NCBI GenBank assembly: GCA_963722255.1
Contig: CAVRJO010000001.1
Span: forward strand, 704,001-768,000
Origin: Candidatus Babeliales bacterium
GTDB taxonomy: Bacteria; Babelota; Babeliae; Babelales; JANWKD01
Length of the DNA stretch: 64,000 bases
Reading direction: 5' to 3'
The notes beneath the pieces were generated by a model. That model worked only from the letters and a program-made list of their open reading frames with translations, was not told the DNA's origin and made no database searches. The position numbers were made by a program, and so were the translations under genes. Positions 10,460-59,384 of the stretch are shown piece by piece (the first letter of the stretch is position 1; each line of letters opens with the position of its first letter).

Positions 10460-10508
10460 AATTTCTTAGGTATTTTGTTTGTTCAAAATACCTAAAACCA
10501 AAATTTTT

Positions 10509-10735
10509 TATTAGCAGTATTTTGCATGCCCAAAATAGTGCAGACAAAAGGGCACAAACAGTTCCTTTTGATCCCTTTCCCATGCGTATATGCACCACAC
10601 ATCATTTCGGCTTTGCAGCCTCATGATTTCGGGTGCACGACGCATTACCGGAATATATTTTATAAGTCTGATTTTTTACTAAGACATGTATGTTTTTCAA
10701 CACAAAAAACAATTATTAATCGCAAAGTTGTCATT
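10509..10735 (-). repeat. About 225-bp structured repeat, copy 1
   Basis: Reverse complement aligns with 30014-30236; contains several hairpins. Confidence 0.85.
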
Positions 10736-10757: not shown

Positions 10758-10810
10758 GTCATTGCGAGAGCCTACTTCGCTTTGCGAAGTATGGTTCGTG
10801 GCAACCCAGT
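10758..10810. repeat. Lone arm of GTCAT palindromic element with internal hairpin
   Basis: gtcattgcgagagcc-tacttcgc-ttt-gcgaagta-tggttcgtggcaacccagt. Confidence 0.8.
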
Positions 10811-11980: not shown

Positions 11981-12249
11981 CAGGGCAACCGCACTATAAA
12001 GATTGAATTAATAATAGAAAAATCCATTTGAAACGGCAGCTAAATTCACGCTTGTCATTGCGAGCGAACGCGCGGCAACCCAGTTATAAAGACTTCTCAT
12101 TTTAACGACTGGGTCACCACGTCGCAATGCTCCTCGTGATGACATTGGTGTTTATTATTGATTGTACTTTGATAAATCAAAGTTAATTTTTCCAAACACC
12201 TTTATTAATAAAAGTAGCTAAAATCCTGGATTCATAGTGCGGTTGCCTG
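11981..12249. mobile_element. MITE-like element with ISAs1-like terminal inverted repeats, containing a paired palindrome
   Basis: Left cagggcaaccgcactataaa (11981-12000), right ttcatagtgcggttgc-ctg (12231-12249); left 110 bp repeated at 29845. Confidence 0.65.
12054..12143. repeat. Paired GTCAT palindromic element (REPIN-like)
   Basis: gtcattgcgagcgaacgcgcggcaacccagt, AT spacer, actgggtcaccacgtcgcaatgctcctcgtgatgac. Confidence 0.85.
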
Positions 12250-12255
12250 CTACTG

Positions 12256-12606
12256 TTGCCGGAGGAATCGCAGGACACGCAATTATTTGTTACTCTTATT
12301 AATAATTTACAGCATCAAATTCCGCAGTCAAGAAATCATTACCTTCGCACAGACAAGGGCTTTGTTTCTAAAAAAAATAAAGAAGAAGCTATTAAACGAA
12401 ACTTTACACCTGTTATGCTAATAAAAAAGCCAAAAAATAAGCCCCGAATCACGAAAGATAAAGATCCAATATGGTGGGTTGCAGAAAGAACATTTTCTTG
12501 GATGAATCAATTCAGACGCGTTTTCATTCGTTATGATAAGCTATCTAAAAACTTTCTTGGACTAGTTCAATTTGACTGTCTAGTCATCATTTTCAGAAAA
12601 ATTTAG
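12256..12606 (+). pseudogene. IS5-family transposase C-terminal remnant
   Basis: DKGF; W-V-AERTFSWMNQFRRVFIRYDK is the IS5 signature; N-terminal part missing. Confidence 0.8.
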
Positions 12607-12828: not shown

Positions 12829-14178
12829 TAGATTATTAAAAAATAATAAGAACAATTTCTTTCAATTATAAAATACAGGAACTCATGAAAAAACATTTCA
12901 TACACTTCGCTCTTATTCTCATGATCTGCAGTTCATTACCAATTATTGCCATGGAGATGAGTTTTCAAGATCAAAAAGAAACGATAGAAACATATATGAC
13001 TGAAGGTGCTAATCTTGATCAATATAATCATAGTGGCAATACGCCTTTGGTCTTAGCAGCTCAAAACAATGATTGTAACCTGGTTCACCAGCTTGTTGCA
13101 TTCGGTGCAAGCGTCAACACGCAAGCATTAAATGGTTCAACGCCCCTTTCGGAAGCCGTTCGTTGTCGAAATTTTAATGTTGTTAATTTCTTATTAGATC
13201 ATGGGGCTCAAAGCGATATTCAAGATGAAAAAGGAGATACGGCTCTTTCTCTTGCACTTGATTATGGATTTGCAGAACTTGCACAGCTTATGGTTTCTAG
13301 CGAAAACCAGAGCAAGCCTAAAAGAACAGTAAAAACAGGAGACAAACAAAATCAGGACGATAAGAAACTACCACAAAAAAATAGAACAACTTCCAAAAAA
13401 CAAAAGAAGAAATTTTCTCATTTTACAGCACAACTCAGAGCAGGCGTTGATTCCGTAAAATTATTGATGACTAATCATAAAAAAAATACTTCACAACAAC
13501 AAAAAGCTTTACATGATTTTTTTAATAAAAAAATGAGTTCTTATGATAAACAATCATGTATAGAAGAACATTCTCAATTAGTTTCAGCTCTTTATTCAAA
13601 TAATATGCAAAAAATAGAAGCACTTTTAGAGGGTCAATCATTTGATATAAATCAACAAGATACTATTATGGGATTAACACCCTTAGCAGAGGCTTGCTTT
13701 ATCGGTAATTATAGGGCAGTTAAAAAATTCATAAATACCAGGGAAGCTCTCATAGAATTGCCTGATAATAAAGGATTAACTCCAATAATGCGTTCAATTT
13801 CACAAAAGCATGACAGAATTGTTCGATTTTTAATAAAAAAAGGAGCCAATATAAATGCTCAAGATCATGATGGCGAAACAAACTTAATTAAAGCAATATG
13901 TTTTGGAACTCCCCAAACTGTTGATTTATTAATTGATATGGGCGCAGATATAAACATATGTGATAACAATGGATCTGGTCCACTTTTCTTTGCAGTTACT
14001 AATACAAATCCTTTACTTGTTGAGAAGTTAATTAATAGAGGTGCATATATTGACGGACACTCATCTGATACAGTGCCGCTCTTAGAAGCCCTAAGAAAAG
14101 TTAATGCTTCTATTGCTCAATTTTTAATTGAACATGGTGCAAATTGCAAAGCTCGTGGACGGGATGGCATTACTGCTA

Positions 14179-14798
14179 ATAAATTTCACCCGCAGCAAGC
14201 AGCGGGGTATTGAATTTTTTTAAGGATTTCTATCTACATGAAGAACATCTGACCCAGATCTCTTGGCGTACGAGTAGGGTCTTTTTTGTGCAACATCATG
14301 TAATCCCTTCCCTGGTTTTTTACGTATTCTGCCACTCGTTTTTCGCTTCCATGCTTACTTACCGTGTTTACGAAATATCCATCAGACCAAAATTCTCCAC
14401 CCCATAGCTGCCTCTTTACTTCGGGAACTCGTTTGAAAATTTCCCGCGCCGTTATACTTTTTATTTTTCTAATGATATTCGTAGGACTATACGTCGGTAC
14501 GGACTGCACAAGAAAATGAACGTGATCCCCATCTGTTCCTATTTCTAGAAACTCTATCTGATAACGTTTTTCTATCTCAAGACACACCAACCTCAATACT
14601 TTGTCTACTTCCTCTGTAAAAACCGCTCGCCTATATTTTGCTGGACAAACTATATGATACATCAGAACCGATACATTATGACTTTTGTGTATAAACCTAC
14701 TTAATTTACTCATTCTCCCAATTTATCAGGACTTTTTATTTATTCCATTTTTTTTATCTGACTACGCGGCAAGCCGCGGGGAATTGTACCCGTAGAGA
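14179..14798 (-). mobile_element. IS200/IS605-family IS (tnpA only), copy 1
   Basis: Near-identical to 57023-57641; subterminal hairpins cgcggcaagccgcg and ccgcagcaagcagcgg; no target duplication; ends uncertain by 1-2 nt. Confidence 0.92.
14234..14713 (-). CDS. tnpA: IS200 Y1 (HUH) transposase
   Basis: YHIVCPAKYRR, DHVHFLV, FWSDGYF, YVKNQ. Confidence 0.97.
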   Translation of the reverse strand: MSKLSRFIHKSHNVSVLMYHIVCPAKYRRAVFTEEVDKVLRLVCLEIEKRYQIEFLEIGTDGDHVHFLVQSVPTYSPTNIIRKIKSITAREIFKRVPEVKRQLWGGEFWSDGYFVNTVSKHGSEKRVAEYVKNQGRDYMMLHKKDPTRTPRDLGQMFFM

Positions 14799-16310
14799 TT
14801 AAAAAAGCAAAAAGAGACTTGAGGCTTGAACGTCTTGTGCCATTAATGAAAGAACAGATTTCCTCACAGCCTCAAGAATATAAAGAACAAATCGAAGAAA
14901 ATTATAATGTTGTTGATGCCCAAATGGAAAATGAAGTTAATTTTAATGAAGAAAATAGTTCTTCAGAAGAAGTGGTTGAACGAAGAAGAGATCAAGGAAA
15001 GGCTGATGAGCTATCACTGCATAAAAAAACAAAAAAGGATATTAATTTTAATCAAAACAATACATGTCAAGAGTTTTTTGATAAAAACGAAGAAGAAACA
15101 GTGCAACCCGAGCTTGCCGTAATTCTATTACAGGCTATTAAAAAAGATAATCTTACCGCCATTCAAGATTCTATTGTAAAAATGACCACTATCAATCAAC
15201 CAATAAATCAAGAAGGCCGTACTTTACTTGCTCATGCAATCGGCACTCACAAAACTAAAATGGCTCAATGGCTAATCGAAGCAGGCGCGGATATTGATAA
15301 ACATGACAAATATGGAATGACGCCCTTACTTAGGGCCATAATGGCGGAAGAATCTATAATTGCTCAAGAATTAATTATTCGTGGGGCTGATATTAATAAA
15401 AGTAATGAAGATGGAATTACGCCATTGCTATTTGCACTGCAAAACGCACAATATCCAATTGCTCGCTTATTAATTATTAATGGGGCTGATATTAATAAAA
15501 GTGATAAGGATGGAACAACACCATTACAATTTGCCTCGTCTTGCTGCTCTCCCGGCAATGTTGAAATCATTCAATTATTGCTTAAAGAAGGCGTTGATAT
15601 TGAAAAAAGTAATATACATGGAACAACAGCATTACTCTATGCTCTTCGGGGAGGTCTTCCTTTGAGTCCCAAAGTTGCTCGCCTATTAATAATTGAAGGC
15701 GCTGATATTCATAAATGTGACAATAGAGGAATAACGCCTCTAATGTGGGCTATTAGGAGAAAACAACCTGAGCTTCTTCAAGAATTAATTACTAAAGGGG
15801 CTAATATTAACAAAAGCAATAAGCATGGAACCCCATTAATAATAGCTATAAAACACGTTTGGGGACTTGAAGATATTAAATTGTTTATTAAAGCCGGCGC
15901 AAATGTCAATGATCGTGACGATGAAGGGAATTCAGCTTTACATTATGCTTTCAGGAGGGATATTCTAGAAGGCTTGCCTTTTATAAGTCAATTGAACGAG
16001 TATATCCCTATCATAAATTTATTAATTGAACATGGTGCAGATGTAAACGTGCCATATGAAAAAAATAGCAACATAACGTTATTGCAATACATTGCTGAAC
16101 GTAGTCAATTTTCTGAAGTTCTTAAATGCATTCTCTCTCGCAATCCAACTCTTGATGAAGAGAGCAAAATCCAAGTTCTTAAATGGGCCACTACAAGCAG
16201 AAATCAAGATGCAATTAATATATTAAAAGAAGAAAAAAAGAAACAATGCATAATCAGCTAAGCAATGGTTATTACTGTTTTAGTTTCAGTAAAATGAAAA
16301 ACATACATAT

Positions 16311-18338: not shown

Positions 18339-20939
<2,601 letters not shown>

Positions 20940-20967: not shown

Positions 20968-21057
20968 GTCATTGCGAGCGCAGCGAAGCAACCCAGTAAT
21001 AAAAATGAAAAGTCTTCATAACTGGGTCACCACGTCGCAAATGCTCCTCGTGATGAC
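20968..21057. repeat. Paired GTCAT palindromic element (REPIN-like)
   Basis: gtcattgcgagcgcagcgaagcaacccagt ... actgggtcaccacgtcgcaaatgctcctcgtgatgac; right arm nearly identical to 12108-12143. Confidence 0.85.
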
Positions 21058-21217
21058 GATTCTATGATCGCACAGCGTATTTACTTTAAATTAAATAAAG
21101 GATTAAAATATATATTAAATTTTTCTTCGTATCAACTTTAGTTATTAATGAAATCAATAAGAAAGAAAAATTTTACATAAGAATGACGATTTTATTCCAA
21201 ATCATACTTCAATCTCG

Positions 21218-21654
21218 AGAATCGTCATCCTGAGGAGCGTAACGTAGTGAAGTGACGTAGGGATCCAGATCAATAAAAATATAATCATTTAAAAATATGA
21301 AAAAATCAATTATATATATAATGGCAAGTTGCCGAAACGGAACGCTTTACTGCGGCATAACTTCAAATTTACAACAGCGAGTATTCCAACATAAAAATAA
21401 CCTTATTGATGGCTTCACAAAAAAGTACGGATGTAAGATACTTGTATATTATGAACAATATGGCGATATAGTCTCCGCCATAATTCGAGAAAAACAAATA
21501 AAACATTATAAACGAACAAAAAAATTATTACTTATTGAGTCTATGAACCCGAATTGGGATGATTTATATGAAAAGATTTGTAGTTAATTACATAATGAAA
21601 ATTATTGTATAAGCTGGATCCCTACGTCACTTCGTTCCTCAGGATGACGATTCT
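21218..21654. mobile_element. GIY-YIG nuclease cassette bounded by long inverted repeats
   Basis: Left agaatcgtcatcctgagga(gcgtaacgtagt)gaagtgacgtagggatccag (21218-21268); right ctggatccctacgtcacttcgttcctcaggatgacgattct (21614-21654). Confidence 0.75.
21297..21587 (+). CDS. Stand-alone GIY-YIG nuclease (UPF0213-like)
   Basis: IYIMAS..NGTLYCGITSNLQQRVFQHK; FTKKY; AIIREKQIK; NPNWDDL. Confidence 0.93.
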   Translation: MKKSIIYIMASCRNGTLYCGITSNLQQRVFQHKNNLIDGFTKKYGCKILVYYEQYGDIVSAIIREKQIKHYKRTKKLLLIESMNPNWDDLYEKICS

Positions 21655-21703
21655 ATAGTCGCATGGCATATTTACTTTAAATTAAATTAAATAAAGGATT
21701 AAA

Positions 21704-22141
21704 ATGTATATTAAATTTTTCTTCGCACTAATTTTATTTATCAATTCTATCTTTGGTATGCAACAACCAGAAGATTCTTCGATGACCAAAATTAATAGCT
21801 GGCAAGATATGGAGCAGTTTGCTGGTAAGGTAATTGCCTTTCAAAGTAATTCACATCATATTTGCTATGGAGGCTATAAAATTGAAAACGATAGCTCAAT
21901 TTTGTTTGGTTGGGTTTCCGAAATACCACAATCGTGGGCGATGCCATGTCATATAGGTCTTGCCTCAGTTAAGCAACAGGGATATGGTCTAGCTAAAATA
22001 CTAAAACAAGATGCCCTAGGATGTACATGCGCTCTCATTGATTTTTATCTTTCAGAAGGATTGTGGGTTCGGCGTATAACTCAAGAAGAATTTGAAAAAA
22101 TAAACAATGCGGTAAAAAATAAACAAGCTAGATTAAATTAG
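21704..22141 (+). CDS. Secreted hypothetical protein
   Basis: Signal IFG-MQQ; AAGGA RBS. Confidence 0.7.
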   Translation: MYIKFFFALILFINSIFGMQQPEDSSMTKINSWQDMEQFAGKVIAFQSNSHHICYGGYKIENDSSILFGWVSEIPQSWAMPCHIGLASVKQQGYGLAKILKQDALGCTCALIDFYLSEGLWVRRITQEEFEKINNAVKNKQARLN

Positions 22142-22149
22142 CGATATTT

Positions 22150-23768
22150 ATGAAAAAAATTATCGGCCACATTCTCTCCGGTTCACTCTCTGAAGGATTT
22201 GTAATGCGCATTAATGCCGATGCGCATCTTGAAGATATAAAAACGGGAAAGTTTGTTTCAATTATTGGTAACAACTATGCTTTTTTTTCTTTAGTTACTG
22301 ATATAAGCCTTGCCGTCACTGATCCTGATATCTTGCTTTTTCCTCCTTCAGCACAAGAGCCTTTGCTCACATCATTATTACAAAGCAAAGATATATATGC
22401 CACAGTACAGTTAAAGCCAATGCTTATGGTTAATAATAACAAACAGATTATGCCCGTTAAAACGATTCCTCCCCATTTTTCGCCGGTATATGAAGCAACA
22501 AAAGCCGATGTTTCATTAATTTTTGGCGATGAAGATGATATGAGCAAACGCTATTTCAATATTGGTTCTCCACTTGACATGAAAACGCCGATATGCCTTG
22601 ATCTTGAGCGATTAACTGAACGTAGTAATGGTATTTTTGGTAAAACCGGTACGGGAAAAACTTTTTTAACACGACTTGTTCTTGCCGGACTTATTAAAAA
22701 TAAAAAAGCTGTAACACTTATTTTTGATATGCATAGTGAATATGGCCTGCAAGCGCGAACAGAAAATAAATCAGAATCATTTGTAAAAGGACTTAAGACA
22801 TTGTTTCCTTCATCAGTAGCAATTTTTTCAATTGATCCTGATTCAACACGAAGACGCGGTGGCTAGCCCTGATGTAGAACTTATTCTACCTTATCAGGCA
22901 ATCAATGTTGAAGATATTATGTCATTACAAGATGAACTTAATTTACATTCAACAGCCCTTGAAGCCGCCTATTTGATTGTGCTCGCTATAAACAAGATTG
23001 GCTACAAGTTCTCTTATCGCAAGGCGAACGATTGAAAGATTTTGCACAAGAATTAGGAGCACATCCTGAATCCATTGCCGCACTTTATAGAAAATTAAAA
23101 CGTATTGAACGATTTCCATTTTTTAGACCAATGAATGCACCGGGAGCTTATAAATCAGATTCTGCAATTGATCAGATGATGGAGTATATTGATAAAGGAA
23201 TCAATGTTATTGTTGAATTTGGTAACTATACCTCAACATTTTGTTATCTGTTGATTGCAAATATTATTACACGACGAATTCACGCAGAATATATTGCAAA
23301 AACTGAAAAATTTTTAGGCAGCACAACGCGCTGAAGATGAACCAAAAAAACTAATGATCATGCATTGAAGAAGCACATAAATTTTTAAATCCAGTTCAGC
23401 AGCTCGCCAAACGATTTTTGGTATTATTGCACGCGAAATGAGGAAATATTATGTTTCACTTTTACTCGTTGATCAACGGCCATCTGGCATCGATCAAGAA
23501 ATTCTTTCGCAAATTGGTACCAAAATTGTAGCTCAACTTAATGATGAACAAGATATTCAGGCAGTGCTGACTGGCAGTAATAATGCAAACCATTTACGCA
23601 CTGTCATTGGCTCACTTGATAGCAAAAAACAAGCATTATTGTTTGGGCATGCCATTGACTATGCCTATTGTGATACAAACACGAGAGTATGATGAAGATT
23701 TTTATCGCGCCATGAGCAATAATCTTACCGCAGTTCAAATAGACCAGGTGATCAATGAACTTTTTTAA
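22150..23768 (+). CDS. HerA/DUF87 ATPase with HAS-barrel, frameshifted into five pieces
   Basis: GIFGKTGTGKT Walker A, IFDMHSEYG, IEEAHKFL, MRKYYVSLLLVDQRPSGID. Confidence 0.85.
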
Positions 23769-27653: not shown

Positions 27654-27855
27654 ATTTGTTTCATATTTTTATAAGAGAATAAAAGATTTTAATGACTTAA
27701 TTTTCTTTTTTCATAAGTCCAAATAGACAAGATATTATTTTTTCAAACTGCCTCAAACAAAACAAATCTGCTTGATATCTTCACTTGTTTTGTTATTATT
27801 AGATTATTAAAAAATAATAAAAACAATTTTTTTCAATTATAAAATACAGGAGCCC

Positions 27856-29808
27856 ATGAAAAAGCGTCTCATACCTTTAGCCATTGTTTTCACTATCTGC
27901 GGTTCATTACCTCTATTTGCAATGGAGCTGAGCGTTCAGAGTCAAAAAGAAAAGATAGAAACATATATGACTGAAGGCGCCAATCTTGATAACTATGATC
28001 ATAATGGCAATACACCTTTGTTCTTTGCAGCTCAACATAATGACATCAACCTTGTTCATAAACTTGTTGCGTCTGGTGCAGGCGTTAACACGCAAGCACT
28101 AAATGGTTCAACGCCTCTTTCGGAAGCAGTTCGTCACCGAAATATTAATATTGTTAGCTTTTTATTAGATCATGGAGCTCAAAGTGGCATCCAAGATGAA
28201 AAAGGTGATACAGCACTCTCGCTTGCGCTTGATAATGGTTTTATCGATATTGCACAGCGCATAGTATCAGGAGAGAATAAGAGCAAGGCTAAAAAAAATA
28301 GGACAGTAAAAAATGAAGCGGAAAAAAATCAAGGTGAAAAAGAACATAAAAAAAGTAAAAAAGAGCAAATTAAGAATGCTACACATTTAGTTGTGTATGA
28401 AATAAAAGCCGGTTTTGATTTTAAACATATACAAGAACATCGCAACGTTAGTGAACATGTGCAGAGAAGAGCATTGGATGTGTTTAAAAAAGAATATCAA
28501 AGCACCATAAATGTAGAAAGAAGAGCTCAGATTGATAATGCATGGCCGCTATTGAAGGCTGCGATGCTTAATAATGATAGTAAGGCAGTAAAATGCTTAG
28601 TAAATGATCCAACTATCGATATTAATATGCAAGATATTTTCAGCTGTACACCTTTAGTCTTAGCTGCAAGCAAAGGTAATTTGAAGATTGTAAAAGCATT
28701 AGTAAATCATAAAAAGATAGTGATTGACGTGCCCAATGTGGTTGGTAGGACTCCATTAATGGAAGCCGTTTTTTATGAGCATTTTGAAGTTGCAAAACTT
28801 CTAATAAAAAAAGGCGCAAATATTAATGCTCATGACGCTTTAGGGTTTACACCTTTAAGAATTGCTATTTCCAAAAAAAATCATGCAATGGTTGATTTAC
28901 TGCTCAGTTTTTATAGCGAACTAGATATTAACATGAAAAGCATAAATGGTTATTCTGCACTCTATCATGCTGCAAGAGATGGTCAGTTTGATTTAGTTGA
29001 GAAGTTGGTGCAGTATGGCGCCATAATTGAAGATGAATCTGAAGAAACAAGCCCTTTGAATTGTATAGAAATATCTCAAAAAATAGAAAAATATTTACGG
29101 AAAGTTGTTAGAAAAAGAGCACATGAAATAGCGGGAGAGCACTATGAGCAAATTCAGGAAAAAAACCAAAGCATGGAAACTCATCTTGTTATTGATAGGA
29201 TAACAAATGATCGTTATGACATTCAAAATATAACTGCAAAAGACATATCAAAAATAATCGAAGGTTTTTTTGGCCTTGGTATTGTTGCATGCAAAATATT
29301 ATCTAATGAAGCATCTAAACATAATAATTCAGAAAACAGTTTCGCTTTACAAATGCAACAAATAATGGAAAAAAATCCAAAAGCTTATGCATTTTTCATG
29401 GAAAATCCAAATGGTGCAGCGTGTTTTGTACAGTGGATGTACTATCAAACGATATTAGACCTAATACGTAATAAAAACAACAAAAAAGAAGGTGCCAAAG
29501 GCTTTGTTGACCGTTGTATTGTTGCATGTAAAACATCATTTAACGCACCATTTCAACGTAGTAATTCAGAAAACAATTCCGCTTTACAAATGAAACAAAT
29601 GATGGAAAAACATCCCGTAGCTACTGCATTATACATGAAGCCGATATACCATAAAATGATATTAGATCTAATACGTAATATGAATGACAAAAAAGAAGAA
29701 ATGTCAAAGATAATCAAAGGCTTTGTTGGCCTTGGTATTGTTGCATGTAAAGTATCATTTAATGAAGCATCTCAACGTAATAATTCAGAAAACAATTTCG
29801 CTTTATAA
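27856..29808 (+). CDS. Secreted ankyrin-repeat protein with C-terminal tandem repeats
   Basis: GNTPLFFAA, GSTPLSEAV, GRTPLMEAV; N-terminus paralogous to 12885. Confidence 0.92.
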   Translation: MKKRLIPLAIVFTICGSLPLFAMELSVQSQKEKIETYMTEGANLDNYDHNGNTPLFFAAQHNDINLVHKLVASGAGVNTQALNGSTPLSEAVRHRNINIVSFLLDHGAQSGIQDEKGDTALSLALDNGFIDIAQRIVSGENKSKAKKNRTVKNEAEKNQGEKEHKKSKKEQIKNATHLVVYEIKAGFDFKHIQEHRNVSEHVQRRALDVFKKEYQSTINVERRAQIDNAWPLLKAAMLNNDSKAVKCLVNDPTIDINMQDIFSCTPLVLAASKGNLKIVKALVNHKKIVIDVPNVVGRTPLMEAVFYEHFEVAKLLIKKGANINAHDALGFTPLRIAISKKNHAMVDLLLSFYSELDINMKSINGYSALYHAARDGQFDLVEKLVQYGAIIEDESEETSPLNCIEISQKIEKYLRKVVRKRAHEIAGEHYEQIQEKNQSMETHLVIDRITNDRYDIQNITAKDISKIIEGFFGLGIVACKILSNEASKHNNSENSFALQMQQIMEKNPKAYAFFMENPNGAACFVQWMYYQTILDLIRNKNNKKEGAKGFVDRCIVACKTSFNAPFQRSNSENNSALQMKQMMEKHPVATALYMKPIYHKMILDLIRNMNDKKEEMSKIIKGFVGLGIVACKVSFNEASQRNNSENNFAL

Positions 29809-29844: not shown

Positions 29845-30020
29845 CAGGGCAACCGCACTATAAAGATTGAATTAATAAGAGAAAAATACGTTTGGAACGG
29901 CAGTTAAATTCACTCGTCTCATTGCGAGCAAATGCGCGGCAACCCAGTTATAAAAATAAAAAATTCATTAATAAAATGACCTATTTATCCACTGGGTTGC
30001 TTCGCAAGCTCGCAATGACA
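29845..30020. mobile_element. Second (left-end) copy of ISAs1-like MITE with paired palindrome at 29918-30019
   Basis: cagggcaaccgcactataaagattgaattaataa matches 11981 onward; right TIR not found. Confidence 0.7.
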
Positions 30021-30236
30021 ACCTTGCGATTAATAATCGTTTTTTTTGTTGCAAGAAAACATGTCTTAATGAAAAAAATAGCTTATAAAATATTTCCGAT
30101 AGCACGTCGTGCACCCGAAATCATGAGGCTTAAAGCCTCAATGATGTGTGGTGCATATACGCACGGAAAAGGGACAAAAGGAACTGTTTGTGCCCTTTTG
30201 TCTGCAGTATTTTGGGCACGCAAAATACTGCTAATA
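30014..30236 (+). repeat. About 225-bp structured repeat, copy 2
   Basis: Inverted copy of 10509-10735; perfect stem gcagtattttg/caaaatactgc. Confidence 0.85.
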
Positions 30237-30343
30237 GGAAAAATGCCCTTTGGTATTAAAGGTATTCGGCATGCAATATCTTTATAACTACAAATAAAAC
30301 ATCACTTTGAATTAAGATCTTTTGAACATACAAAAGACCTTAA

Positions 30344-31780: not shown

Positions 31781-31882
31781 ACTGGATTGTACAGTCTTCG
31801 CTTATCCACGCCTTCCGGCTTGGCAAGCTTCGACGCACAGGCCACGACCATGCTTCGCTTTGCAAAGCAAGCTCGCAATGAC
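31781..31882. repeat. GTCAT element arm with nested palindromic insertions
   Basis: actggattg-[about 50 bp insert]-gccacgaccatgcttcgctttgcaaagcaagctcgcaatgac; aligns with reverse complement of 10758-10810. Confidence 0.75.
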
Positions 31883-48780: not shown

Positions 48781-48949
48781 GGAAATGTCATCCAGAGGAT
48801 CTTCACGAAAGTGAAGTCCGTGGGATCCAGTTATAAAATTAAAGTCAAAACATCTAATTATTTTATATAAAAATCGTCATATAAACAAAATTTTTAATGA
48901 ATTTTAATTTATCTACTGGATTCCACGCTTCGCTCTGAATGACAATTCC
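48781..48949. repeat. Paired GTCAT palindromic element (gtcatcc subtype), gene-less
   Basis: ggaaatgtcatccagagg...cgtgggatccagt, 83-bp AT spacer, actggattccacg...ctctgaatgacaattcc. Confidence 0.8.
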
Positions 48950-56972: not shown

Positions 56973-57022
56973 AATATAAAGAAACCATCTACAATGAGCA
57001 AATTAAAAAAGTGGTTACCACA

Positions 57023-57641
57023 ATAAATTTCACCCGCAGCAAGCAGCGGGGTATTGAATTTTTTTAAGGATTTCTATCTACATGAAGAACATCTGACCCA
57101 GATCTCTTGGCGTACGAGTAGGGTCTTTTTTGTGCAACATCATGTAATCCCTTCCCTGGTTTTTTACGTATTCTGCCACTCGTTTTTCGCTTCCATGCTT
57201 ACTTACCGTGTTTACGAAATATCCATCAGACCAAAATTCTCCACCCCATAGCTGCCTCTTTACTTCGGGAACTCGTTTGAAAATTTCCCGCGCCGTTATA
57301 CTTTTTATTTTTCTAATGATATTCGTAGGACTATACGTCGGTACGGACTGCACAAGAAAATGAACGTGATCCCCATCTGTTCCTATTTCTAGAAACTCTA
57401 TCTGATAACGTTTTTCTATCTCAAGACACACCAACCTCAATACTTTGTCTACTTCCTCTGTAAAAACCGCTCGCCTATATTTTGCTGGACAAACTATATG
57501 ATACATCAGAACCGATACATTGTGACTTTTGTGTATAAACCTACTTAATTTACTCATTCTCCCAATTTATCAGGACTTTTTATTTATTCCATTTTTTTAT
57601 CTGACTACGCGGCAAGCCGCGGGGAATTGCACCCGTAGAGA
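57023..57641 (-). mobile_element. IS200/IS605-family IS, copy 2
   Basis: Near-identical to copy 1 (two substitutions and one T-run indel seen). Confidence 0.92.
57078..57557 (-). CDS. tnpA: IS200 Y1 transposase
   Basis: Protein identical to 14234-14713. Confidence 0.97.
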   Translation of the reverse strand: MSKLSRFIHKSHNVSVLMYHIVCPAKYRRAVFTEEVDKVLRLVCLEIEKRYQIEFLEIGTDGDHVHFLVQSVPTYSPTNIIRKIKSITAREIFKRVPEVKRQLWGGEFWSDGYFVNTVSKHGSEKRVAEYVKNQGRDYMMLHKKDPTRTPRDLGQMFFM

Positions 57642-59384
57642 TTAAAGATAGAGCAGATAGTAGAAGATATTCTTCTTAATGATCCAAATATCACTACCTT
57701 TTTGCGAGAACAACGTATTATTCTGTATGATGAAATTATTTTTAATAATATCAACAATAAAACAGAACTCAACTCGAGACTCATTACATTTCTTGATGGT
57801 CTAAACGCTGATGTCTTTATTCCAATCTATCGTAATAATACACTTATATCTTTTATAATTATTGAGCGTAATGCTCGTCAAAACCTTTTATTTAGTGACA
57901 TTGAATGCGATGAGATGATTCTTTATGCTGCTAGCTTAGAAAATGTGATTAATATTTTTCAAAATCACAGCCTTGCAACTGTCGCTGAACGTGAAAAAAA
58001 ATTACAAGAAGAGCTTTTCTTAAAACATCAAGAAATCAATCAATTTAAAGAAGCCTTAGAAACGTTTCATCAATCAGAAAAACAGCACAAAATTGGAATT
58101 TTTTCCTATACCTCATATAATCAATTTGTCTACATAAATCAAGACATAAAAGACATTATAACCATCGACCTTAATGCCTATAAAGGACATCGATTAACCA
58201 AAGAATTTCAAGAAATTGCAAGCGAAGTTCTTCGCTATAAAACAACTAAAACAAAACAGACCTGGGATGAACGAGGAGCAAAAATTATTGTCCGAGCTGT
58301 TCCCTTTCTTGAAAAAAACAATGTCTTGCTAATAGTCTATTATCCACATGTATTTGATTTTATTAAACAAGTGCAAGCATGCTTAGGCAAACCAACAGAG
58401 CTTGATTATTTACTTTATTTAGAAACAACACAAGCGGGACAGCTTATACATAAACTCATGCCAAGTGCCAGTCCAAGTTTAATAAACTTTAAAATACAGC
58501 TGCTTAAACTTGCTTTAAGTAAACGCGCATTGCTCATTGATGTTCCTGATGATGATCTTGAGACGATGGTGCATATTTTACATAAAATCAGCATGCGAGA
58601 TTCCTTAAAATCTTTAAAACTCACCTCAGAGTCCGATATGTATATGGTTGCTAAAAGTTTATTTGGTGTTAACACATTGTATGAATCAACCAATGAAATT
58701 AATCGAGAAAAACCTTTACTTGAAACATTGCATAATAATGGAACACTTTTTATACAAAATATTCATATAGCGAGTTTAGAAATCCAAGAAATGTTAGCTG
58801 AGTATATAAAATATGGTTATTACCGTATCTATAAAAGTGATCAACGGGTCGCAAGCTCTGTACGAATTCTTTGTTCAAGCCACCAAAATTTAGCACAACT
58901 TGTTCAAGAAAATAAGTTTTCAAAAGCATTATTTCACGAATTAAATCAAGCCCATTTAACTATGCCTTCTCTTGCTGAATTAACTTCTGAAGAATATCGC
59001 ACTCTTATTGAATCATTTTCTGAACAGACCTTAGCAACATCCTGCATTAAAGACCTTCTTAAGTTTACCGATTCTGAAATTAATAATCTCAATGCCGATA
59101 AACCGCTGAGCTTAAAGGAGTTGCGATCTAAAATAGAACTTATGCTCAAGAAAAAATCTGAACATAAAGATTTACCACTAAAAAATATGCACTTTGATAC
59201 AACGCTTACCTTTGAAGAGCCTGAATTTATGCATGCGGCACAACTTGGCAAAAAAGCACTCAAGGATCCCAAATTATTGGGAATGCTCCTAAAAAGATTC
59301 AAATCTCAAACAAAAGTTGCAGAGTTTTTGGGCGTTGATCGATCGGCTGTTTATAAACGGCTCAAACGTTTTGACCTTTTATAA
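57642..59384 (+). pseudogene. 5'-truncated regulator with degenerate sigma54-activator-like domain and C-terminal HTH
   Basis: NGTLFIQNI, VRILCSSHQNL, SQTKVAEFLGVDRSAVYKR; frame is open right up to the IS end. Confidence 0.75.

Follow-up and report, generated by a model that had tools for sequence, protein, structure and literature searches.

The Ssn nucleases (CDD cd10448), among them SsnA of Neisseria meningitidis, are single-domain GIY-YIG enzymes that are paired with repeats termed NTS or Ssn-related motifs (SRM), and that cut single-stranded DNA (ssDNA) a few bases 5' of hairpins headed by CGTCAT (Chenal et al., 2025; PMC11893778). According to the accessible text of that paper, an oligonucleotide in which CGTC starts at base 25 yields a 20-nt fragment with SsnA, which therefore cuts 4 nt 5' of the head; G26 and C49 of the NTS are needed for both cutting and binding, and all the substrates in the oligonucleotide table are perfect hairpins. 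Repeats flank 42% of the Ssn homologues on both sides, and the authors likened the NTS-ssnA-NTS arrangement to IS/REP systems, suggesting an IS-like, domesticated element (PMC11893778). The only in vivo function shown in the same text is that SsnA lowers the integration of NTS-bearing transforming DNA in Neisseria.

A second relevant family is the CGTC-tagged REP superfamily (CGTC-1 to -4, including dRS3, RPE-4 and RPE-6), whose members 'apparently lack a dedicated transposase' (Di Nocera et al., 2013; PMC3733652). In the text available, no transposase is flanked by CGTC repeats, no link to a nuclease is drawn, and the term GIY-YIG has 0 occurrences. CGTC-type REPs have been without a known mobilising enzyme since 2013, and in the accessible part of the 2025 paper mobility is only a hypothesis (PMC3733652, PMC11893778). 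Among the titles listed by literature searches, that of Chenal et al. (2025) is the only one on Ssn, and none indicates that mobility has been demonstrated.

Resemblance to the cassette described here extends to the REP/REPIN-RAYT and IS200/IS605 systems, in which the enzyme gene lies between its own hairpins, gene-less inverted pairs occur, the substrate is ssDNA, and the cut falls near a tetranucleotide tag. RAYTs are HUH tyrosine enzymes, which both cut and rejoin DNA, whereas a GIY-YIG enzyme only hydrolyses it.

The locus studied here lies in a window of 64,000 nt (C1:704001-768000) of a 1.62-Mb genome of 34% GC, where the first-pass annotation had put forward, as a new pairing and candidate mobile element, a GIY-YIG gene enclosed by inverted repeat arms. 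The pairing is not new: it is that of the Ssn/SRM system, already compared with IS/REP elements (Chenal et al., 2025; PMC11893778). Since the association of nuclease and repeat had been published, the finding as first stated is no discovery, and the mobile-element idea is in print as well. The cassette is a real element of this published system, and it had been correctly described. Beyond the accessible text of Chenal et al. (2025; PMC11893778), in which no empty sites, insertion scars or carriage by DDE miniature elements are given, the present analysis adds all of these together with a subgroup of bulged hairpins. The subgroup and the scars are useful, testable additions to the known pairing and, because the scars have a defined geometry, the mobility of Ssn elements becomes directly testable.

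The nuclease

The gene between the arms (Table 1) occurs once in the genome, and PF01541 is the sole Pfam domain of its 96-aa product. As a proxy for N. meningitidis SsnA we used the orthologue from Neisseria gonorrhoeae, whose orthology is based on DNA matching the three mutagenesis primers of the paper (Y6A, Y17A and E64A) and on a flanking NTS. The two proteins are identical at 46 of 90 residues (51%; E 2e-34), and through this proxy the 96-aa protein counts as an SsnA homologue at the threshold of Chenal et al. (2025), i.e. E < 1e-10 over > 75% of the length. The catalytic residues Y6, Y17 and E64 of SsnA correspond to Y7, Y18 and E65, positions that are invariant in 34 of 34 aligned homologues. 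The top fold matches of the structure model (pLDDT 96) are all GIY-YIG, and the best match among solved structures is a UPF0213 protein (24% identity). Homologous loci from three named genomes were looked up in Supplementary Data 4 of Chenal et al. (2025), and all three are scored there as ssnA-positive. In a FastTree phylogeny, an ingroup of 191 sequences included the Neisseria orthologue and no outgroup sequence, but with a support of 0.70; the ultrafast bootstrap in a smaller IQ-TREE run was 79. A search of NCBIfam with the 96-aa protein gave no match above the cut-off, and a search of a phage collection returned distant matches alone (< 39% identity).

In being a single-domain GIY-YIG protein of about 95 aa, in its catalytic residues and in its identity to the Neisseria orthologue, the protein is like the published Ssn enzymes as far as the accessible text describes them and, judged by sequence, it is a member of the Ssn family; unlike SsnA, it lacks the Trp of the R-x-W-K motif and has Lys at that position. 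By analogy with four other Ssn members, for which ssDNA- and strand-specific cutting 5' of the hairpin head has been shown (PMC11893778), it would be expected to cleave ssDNA site-specifically 5' of its cognate hairpin.

The arms

Table 1. Features of the cassette, its arms and its surroundings (window coordinates).
Feature	Position	Strand	Remarks
Left arm	21218-21268	+	51 nt; 6-nt outer extension, CGTCAT head (GTCAT at 21224), CCAG tail toward gene
Ssn-family GIY-YIG nuclease gene	21297-21587	+	96 aa; Pfam PF01541, E 1.7e-12
Right arm	21614-21654	-	41 nt; subtype as left arm; head 21648, outward
Gene-less inward pair	20968-21057	.	25-nt AT spacer; 28 nt past alaS stop
X (decayed duplicate of X')	21058-21149	+	Start codon lost; abuts head of arm 21022-21057
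Spacer from X to left arm	21150-21217	.	About 70 nt; truncated arm head on minus strand
X'	21649-21745	+	Upstream region and first codons of 145-aa gene; abuts right-arm head, no gap
145-aa gene	21704-22141		
Lone arm	10758-10809	+	
Miniature inverted-repeat element	11981-12249	+	CAGGGCAA-type ends; carries arm pair 12054-12143
Gene-less inward pair	12054-12143		Inside miniature element 11981-12249
DDE transposase fragment	12256-12606		Beside miniature element 11981-12249
Miniature-element left end, then arm pair	29845-30019	+	CAGGGCAA family; arm pair 29916-30019
Gene-less inward pair	29916-30019		Left head is a variant
Arm interrupted by second GC-rich repeat	31781-31882	-	
Gene-less inward pair	48787-48943	.	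85-nt AT spacer

The intact gene between inverted arms was confirmed as annotated. Inverted with respect to each other, the two arms differ only by a 10-nt loop insertion, and the ends given in the first-pass annotation include a 6-nt outer extension that is common to both. After the head, the left arm consists of a short stem, a GAG / CGNR internal loop and an upper hairpin. The same two-arm design had been noted at 12054, 20968, 29918 and 48781, and was recovered at all four places with the limits of Table 1. As to the lone arms, the one at 10758 stands, and the one at 31781 proved to be a minus-strand arm broken by a second GC-rich repeat. This second repeat, also palindromic, is nested in the loops of several arms (window 31800-31860; G000 C2:498250-498330 and C2:278930-279020).

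By a rule-based search, 57 arms grouped into 37 loci were counted genome-wide, compared with 0, 0, 3, 0 and 0 in five Markov shuffles, and the 19 adjacent pairs less than 130 nt apart are all inward-facing with heads out. These numbers bear out the dispersed family that had been described; as palindromes, single arms are only weak, and none of five strands folded better than its shuffles (z from -1.5 to +0.8). Structure is indicated by compensatory change in the 3-4-bp stem, in which positions 6 and 7 alternate among two and three kinds of base pair, and 56 of the 57 arms have GAG on the 5' side of the internal loop, but these counts are biased because the arm finder itself demanded both features. 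Both arms of the cassette have the YGTCAY head and the C after the stem. The published SRM pattern has 0 matches across the 1.6-Mb genome, and is therefore unfit for counting the present arms.

Like the hairpins of the Ssn/NTS system in the accessible text, the arms are directional (CGTCAT...CYAG), lie on both sides of the gene and have more copies genome-wide; unlike those, they have a 3-4-bp stem, a GAG/CGNR internal loop and loops as long as about 30 nt, and fall outside the SRM pattern. With the CGTC REP superfamily, as described in the part of the paper available, they share the CGTC/TGTC tag, the AT at the stem base and the CCA tail, and the members of that superfamily, like the arms, are mostly dimers, many of them heterodimers (PMC3733652). 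The arm repeat itself may well be an already described CGTC family.

The arm pairs are REPIN-like in layout and the genome has 11 IS200-type Y1_Tnp matches, as would be expected if the arms were REPs mobilised by an HUH (Y1) transposase and the GIY-YIG gene were incidental. However, all 11 Y1 genes are more than 2 kb from any arm (the nearest is at 2,169 nt), so that, unlike in RAYT systems, the Y1 genes of this genome are not flanked by arms; nor is any transposase flanked by CGTC repeats in the accessible text of Di Nocera et al. (2013; PMC3733652), and across taxa the arms track the GIY-YIG gene. Mobilisation by a Y1 enzyme is therefore very improbable, and the RAYT link was rejected, the model being largely refuted by the distance of the Y1 genes from the arms. 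Two IS200-type Y1 element copies in the window (14178-14803 and 57022-57646) are 100% identical over the 300 nt compared, and show no link to the arms.

Outside the arms, the 250 nt 5' of arm 10758-10809 recur in inverted form, with 86% identity, 5' of arm 29992-30019. The duplicated stretches (window 10504-10735 and 30014-30241; about 250 nt) have relatives 5' of at least five other arms, and may constitute a further miniature element or a non-coding element that is conserved.

Association of nuclease and arms

Genomes, metagenomes and viral contigs yielded 278 distinct homologous loci, 242 of which have 200 nt on both sides. Inward arms are present on both sides in 138 of these 242 loci and on at least one side in 193, and no arms were found by the rule in 49, some of which carry head variants outside it. 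Under a stricter arm rule, both arms were found at 32 of 77 loci and at 0 of 66 distal control windows. The gene is present (E <= 1e-18) in 44 of 201 related genomes, in 1-5 copies, as compared with 11 of the 13 genomes with at least 5 internal-loop arms, which are kin and not independent; of the other two arm-rich genomes, one has weaker fragments only and one has no match. The enrichment of inward arms at nuclease homologues that the first-pass annotation anticipated is thus present, and the nuclease-repeat link is real and general across the homologues.

The UPF0213 protein found as best solved-structure match, and the frequent position of arms just after genes, would also suit a common repair nuclease of the UPF0213/YhbQ type placed by chance between terminator-like repeats. 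We give hardly any credence to such a chance or regulatory arrangement, in view of the 51% identity to the SsnA orthologue, the patchy and multi-copy distribution, the arms on both sides at 138 of 242 loci, and the alaS-herA interval, which is not syntenic in relatives (see below).

Internal-loop arms were found at 64 of the 242 loci. The SRM is matched at 0 of these 64 as against 72 of 129 plain-hairpin loci, and the Trp of R-x-W-K is found in 0 of the 64 internal-loop proteins as against 102 of the 129 plain-hairpin proteins. On the tree of 191 proteins, arm type changes 7 times, compared with 53 times on average (minimum 46) when the labels are shuffled; because kin share labels, this clustering denotes a subgroup and not co-evolution. 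In IQ-TREE, the window protein groups exclusively with internal-loop proteins (bootstrap 76); FastTree disagrees, placing it with weak support among plain-hairpin proteins. From its arms and residues, the window nuclease is assigned to the subgroup with purine-rich internal-loop arms and without the conserved Trp. Cleavage of bulged arms would be an extrapolation, because the SRM pattern fails on them and they fold no better than shuffles. Ssn enzymes are under development as ssDNA tools, and the bulged-hairpin subgroup, whose loci (64 of the 242) all fall outside the published motif, is a pool of candidate new specificities for such tools.

A parallel nuclease-repeat pair was observed in related genomes at L093-L107, where distant small GIY-YIG proteins (about 30-36% identity) have their own inward-facing repeat, with a CGCTC/CGTTC-type head and a GAAGGAT/GAGGGAT-type tail.

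A putative insertion scar and the empty sites

The sequence that follows the right arm, X', has a decayed counterpart, X, on the other side of the cassette (Table 1). The two are 82% identical over 97 nt and are the only copies in the genome; each terminates precisely at the head of an arm, and the arms that they abut are of different subtypes. X may be read as a duplicated target, and the right arm of the pair 20968-21057 (21022-21057) as the putative target of the insertion, of which the spacer between X and the left arm would be the ragged end. Along the minus strand, X' is followed by arm-gene-arm and then by the 70-nt spacer, X and the resident arm, as expected had the cassette entered immediately 5' of an arm already in place.

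The alaS-herA interval has no nuclease gene in the three relatives examined (G001, G003 and G004). In G004, alaS and herA are adjacent; in G003, the 145-aa gene directly follows alaS, with no arms; and in G001 the interval contains a gene-less arm pair. A fourth relative, G002, has alaS and herA on different contigs and is outside this comparison. Because the empty sites belong to distant relatives (neighbour genes with 53-76% protein identity), no exact pre-insertion allele is seen. Comparison with one DNA sequencing run (share 0.08) showed no joint and added no information. The contrast of empty and filled sites looked for in relatives is thus found and, with its patchy, multi-copy distribution, its empty sites and its insertion scar, the cassette behaves as the mobile unit it had been supposed to be.

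It should be noted that alaS (18339-20939) and the HerA-like gene (22150-23768) are each broken into several overlapping ORFs in the window. In the relatives G002-G004 they are single frames, with a HerA of 542 aa and an AlaS of 869-885 aa (G001 included). The pattern points to indel errors left uncorrected in the assembly, and 'broken' genes in it are therefore to be read with care.

Putative scars at other loci

In several multi-copy genomes (G001, G004, G093 and others), the similarity between cassettes ends at the arm heads. A direct repeat spans the gene at 36 of 197 testable loci, as compared with 1 of 1200 mismatched controls; most of the 36 are BIME-like tandem repeats of arm plus linker. 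Eight duplications of unique sequence (24-96 nt), selected by eye, end 0-6 nt from a head (L001, L006, L010, L019, L078, L133, L239 and L240), three of them representing one site (sucD), and three further duplications end at least 7 nt from it (L022, L209 and L221). Unrelated taxa have duplications of this kind, ending at arm heads. In L001 and in the sucD cases, the duplicated target is succeeded by a GTC-type head, which is absent after the target copy in L078, L133 and L239. In the present genome, gene-less arm pairs gave no target-like direct repeats, only the cassette and one tRNA-tRNA match having scored among 36 loci. The duplication across the cassette of L209 is 38-40 nt long, and seems to resemble the 3'-terminal part of a 5S rRNA gene.

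The cassette lies directly before sucD in 30 of 80 genome loci (L002-L075), in Sphingomonadales and similar genomes. A truncated start of sucD is found just 5' of the left arm in four loci by a script rule and in two more by eye and, at the intact sucD, the junction point is in most cases followed 3 nt on by GTCATC. Because SsnA cuts 4 nt 5' of CGTC, the sucD junctions are no more than one or two bases from the predicted cut. It is possible that sucD has been struck repeatedly by the cassette, and its position in 30 of 80 loci also fits long vertical inheritance.

A possible mode of insertion

Because both heads point outward, two cuts are predicted at the outer edges of the cassette, one on each strand. 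By analogy with the characterised members, the Ssn enzyme would bind its own CGTC-tagged hairpin in ssDNA and cut a few bases 5' of the head. At the target, it would nick exposed ssDNA immediately 5' of an arm already in place, or of a look-alike, where the cut end of the cassette itself would be joined, and host repair would close the other end raggedly. A single precise junction, located at an arm head, would be expected, together with a target duplication of 25-100 nt, which here would comprise the start of the neighbour gene. The gene-less arm pairs may have spread partly by this nick route and, at roughly 4 in 10 loci, they would be passengers in miniature elements moved by DDE transposases.

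Ssn-driven mobility of the cassette appears plausible. A nuclease domain is not known to have any joining chemistry, a point that counts against nuclease-driven insertion. Taken as a whole, the account that we favour, and consider rather probable, is that of a selfish and occasionally mobile cassette of the NTS-ssnA-NTS type, which inserts by nicking and whose arm pairs are partly DDE passengers. In its strong form, Ssn cassettes would be a true mobile class driven by the 96-aa GIY-YIG nuclease without a transposase, the enzyme nicking both donor and target; joining would be left to host repair, with a one-sided duplication of 25-100 nt that could rebuild the interrupted start of a gene; and the bulged-hairpin subgroup would have its own specificity, with DDE miniature elements as a second vehicle. 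This strong form we put forward only tentatively, as something short of an even chance.

Carriage by DDE-type miniature elements

The supposition that no classical transposase is present could not be maintained, as the genome has 31 DDE_Tnp_1 matches in addition to the 11 Y1 matches, and many arm loci, including those at 12054 and 29918, are in DDE-type miniature elements. Many arm loci have a common flank of 60-100 nt that ends abruptly. In an automated search, outer inverted repeats were found at 12 of 37 arm loci (about 3 of which look spurious) as compared with 9 of 150 random sites and, by inspection, about 16 of the 37 loci fall in four end families. Because these 16 or so loci are inside DDE-ended miniature elements, much of the spread of the arms would be hitch-hiking.

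Target duplications accompany five miniature-element copies, and measure 9-10 bp in the CAGGGCAA family and 7 bp in a second family, the ends of which match a decayed 982-bp element of IS982 type, assigned by Pfam (C1:904496-905477). The arm pairs at 12054 and 29918 begin about 73 nt inside the miniature-element end; for the element at 29845-30019, a right end was not found. By their end sequences and duplication lengths, the miniature-element ends are presumably ISAs1-, IS5- and IS256-like. A search of the genome (93% complete) for PF13808, as the transposase parent of the CAGGGCAA element, and a search of 4 relatives for the CAGGGCAA-type end pattern were both negative, and the family label is therefore tentative.

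In a minority of the homologous loci of relatives, whole cassettes lie between IS-type ends without a transposase. The clear cases are L165 and the G191 copies L129/L149/L150 (86-90% identity), and L127, L155, L164 and L189 are candidates by eye; no frequency of such shells is claimed, because arm variants dominated the results when outer IS ends were searched for automatically around homologous cassettes. In their terminal inverted repeats, their target duplications of 7-10 bp and their lack of a transposase, the arm-bearing elements are like MITEs and mobile insertion cassettes; unlike in the usual MITEs, the cargo is an Ssn arm pair (in the present genome) or a whole Ssn cassette (in relatives).

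Carriage of this kind raises the question of whether the nuclease moves anything at all. It could be an ssDNA restriction or processing enzyme tolerated by the host, the cassette and arms being moved by DDE elements or by recombination between repeats, and the duplications arising when Ssn nicks in pre-existing repeats are repaired. Such an enzyme would agree with the sole function shown in vivo, the reduced integration of NTS-bearing transforming DNA, in the accessible text of Chenal et al. (2025; PMC11893778). The DDE-type shells at about 16 of 37 arm loci, five of them with target duplications of 7-10 bp, the IS982-type parent with matching ends and the whole cassettes between transposase-less IS-type ends (L165 and L129/L149/L150) speak for the same reading, whereas the window cassette itself has no outer IS ends: neither outer terminal inverted repeats, nor a short target duplication, nor a transposase gene was found around 21218-21654. 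In addition, an outer inverted repeat is present at only 13 of 129 two-armed loci, and is mostly not an IS end; multi-copy cassettes in several genomes share nothing past the arms; and duplications ending at heads are found in unrelated taxa. On this evidence we consider it unlikely, if by no means negligible, that the nuclease is such a bystander, and we retain the occasionally mobile, nick-inserted cassette as the preferred reading.

Finally, the window contains paralogous ankyrin-repeat genes with predicted signal peptides (12885-16261 and 27740-28850), which would agree with an intracellular lifestyle.
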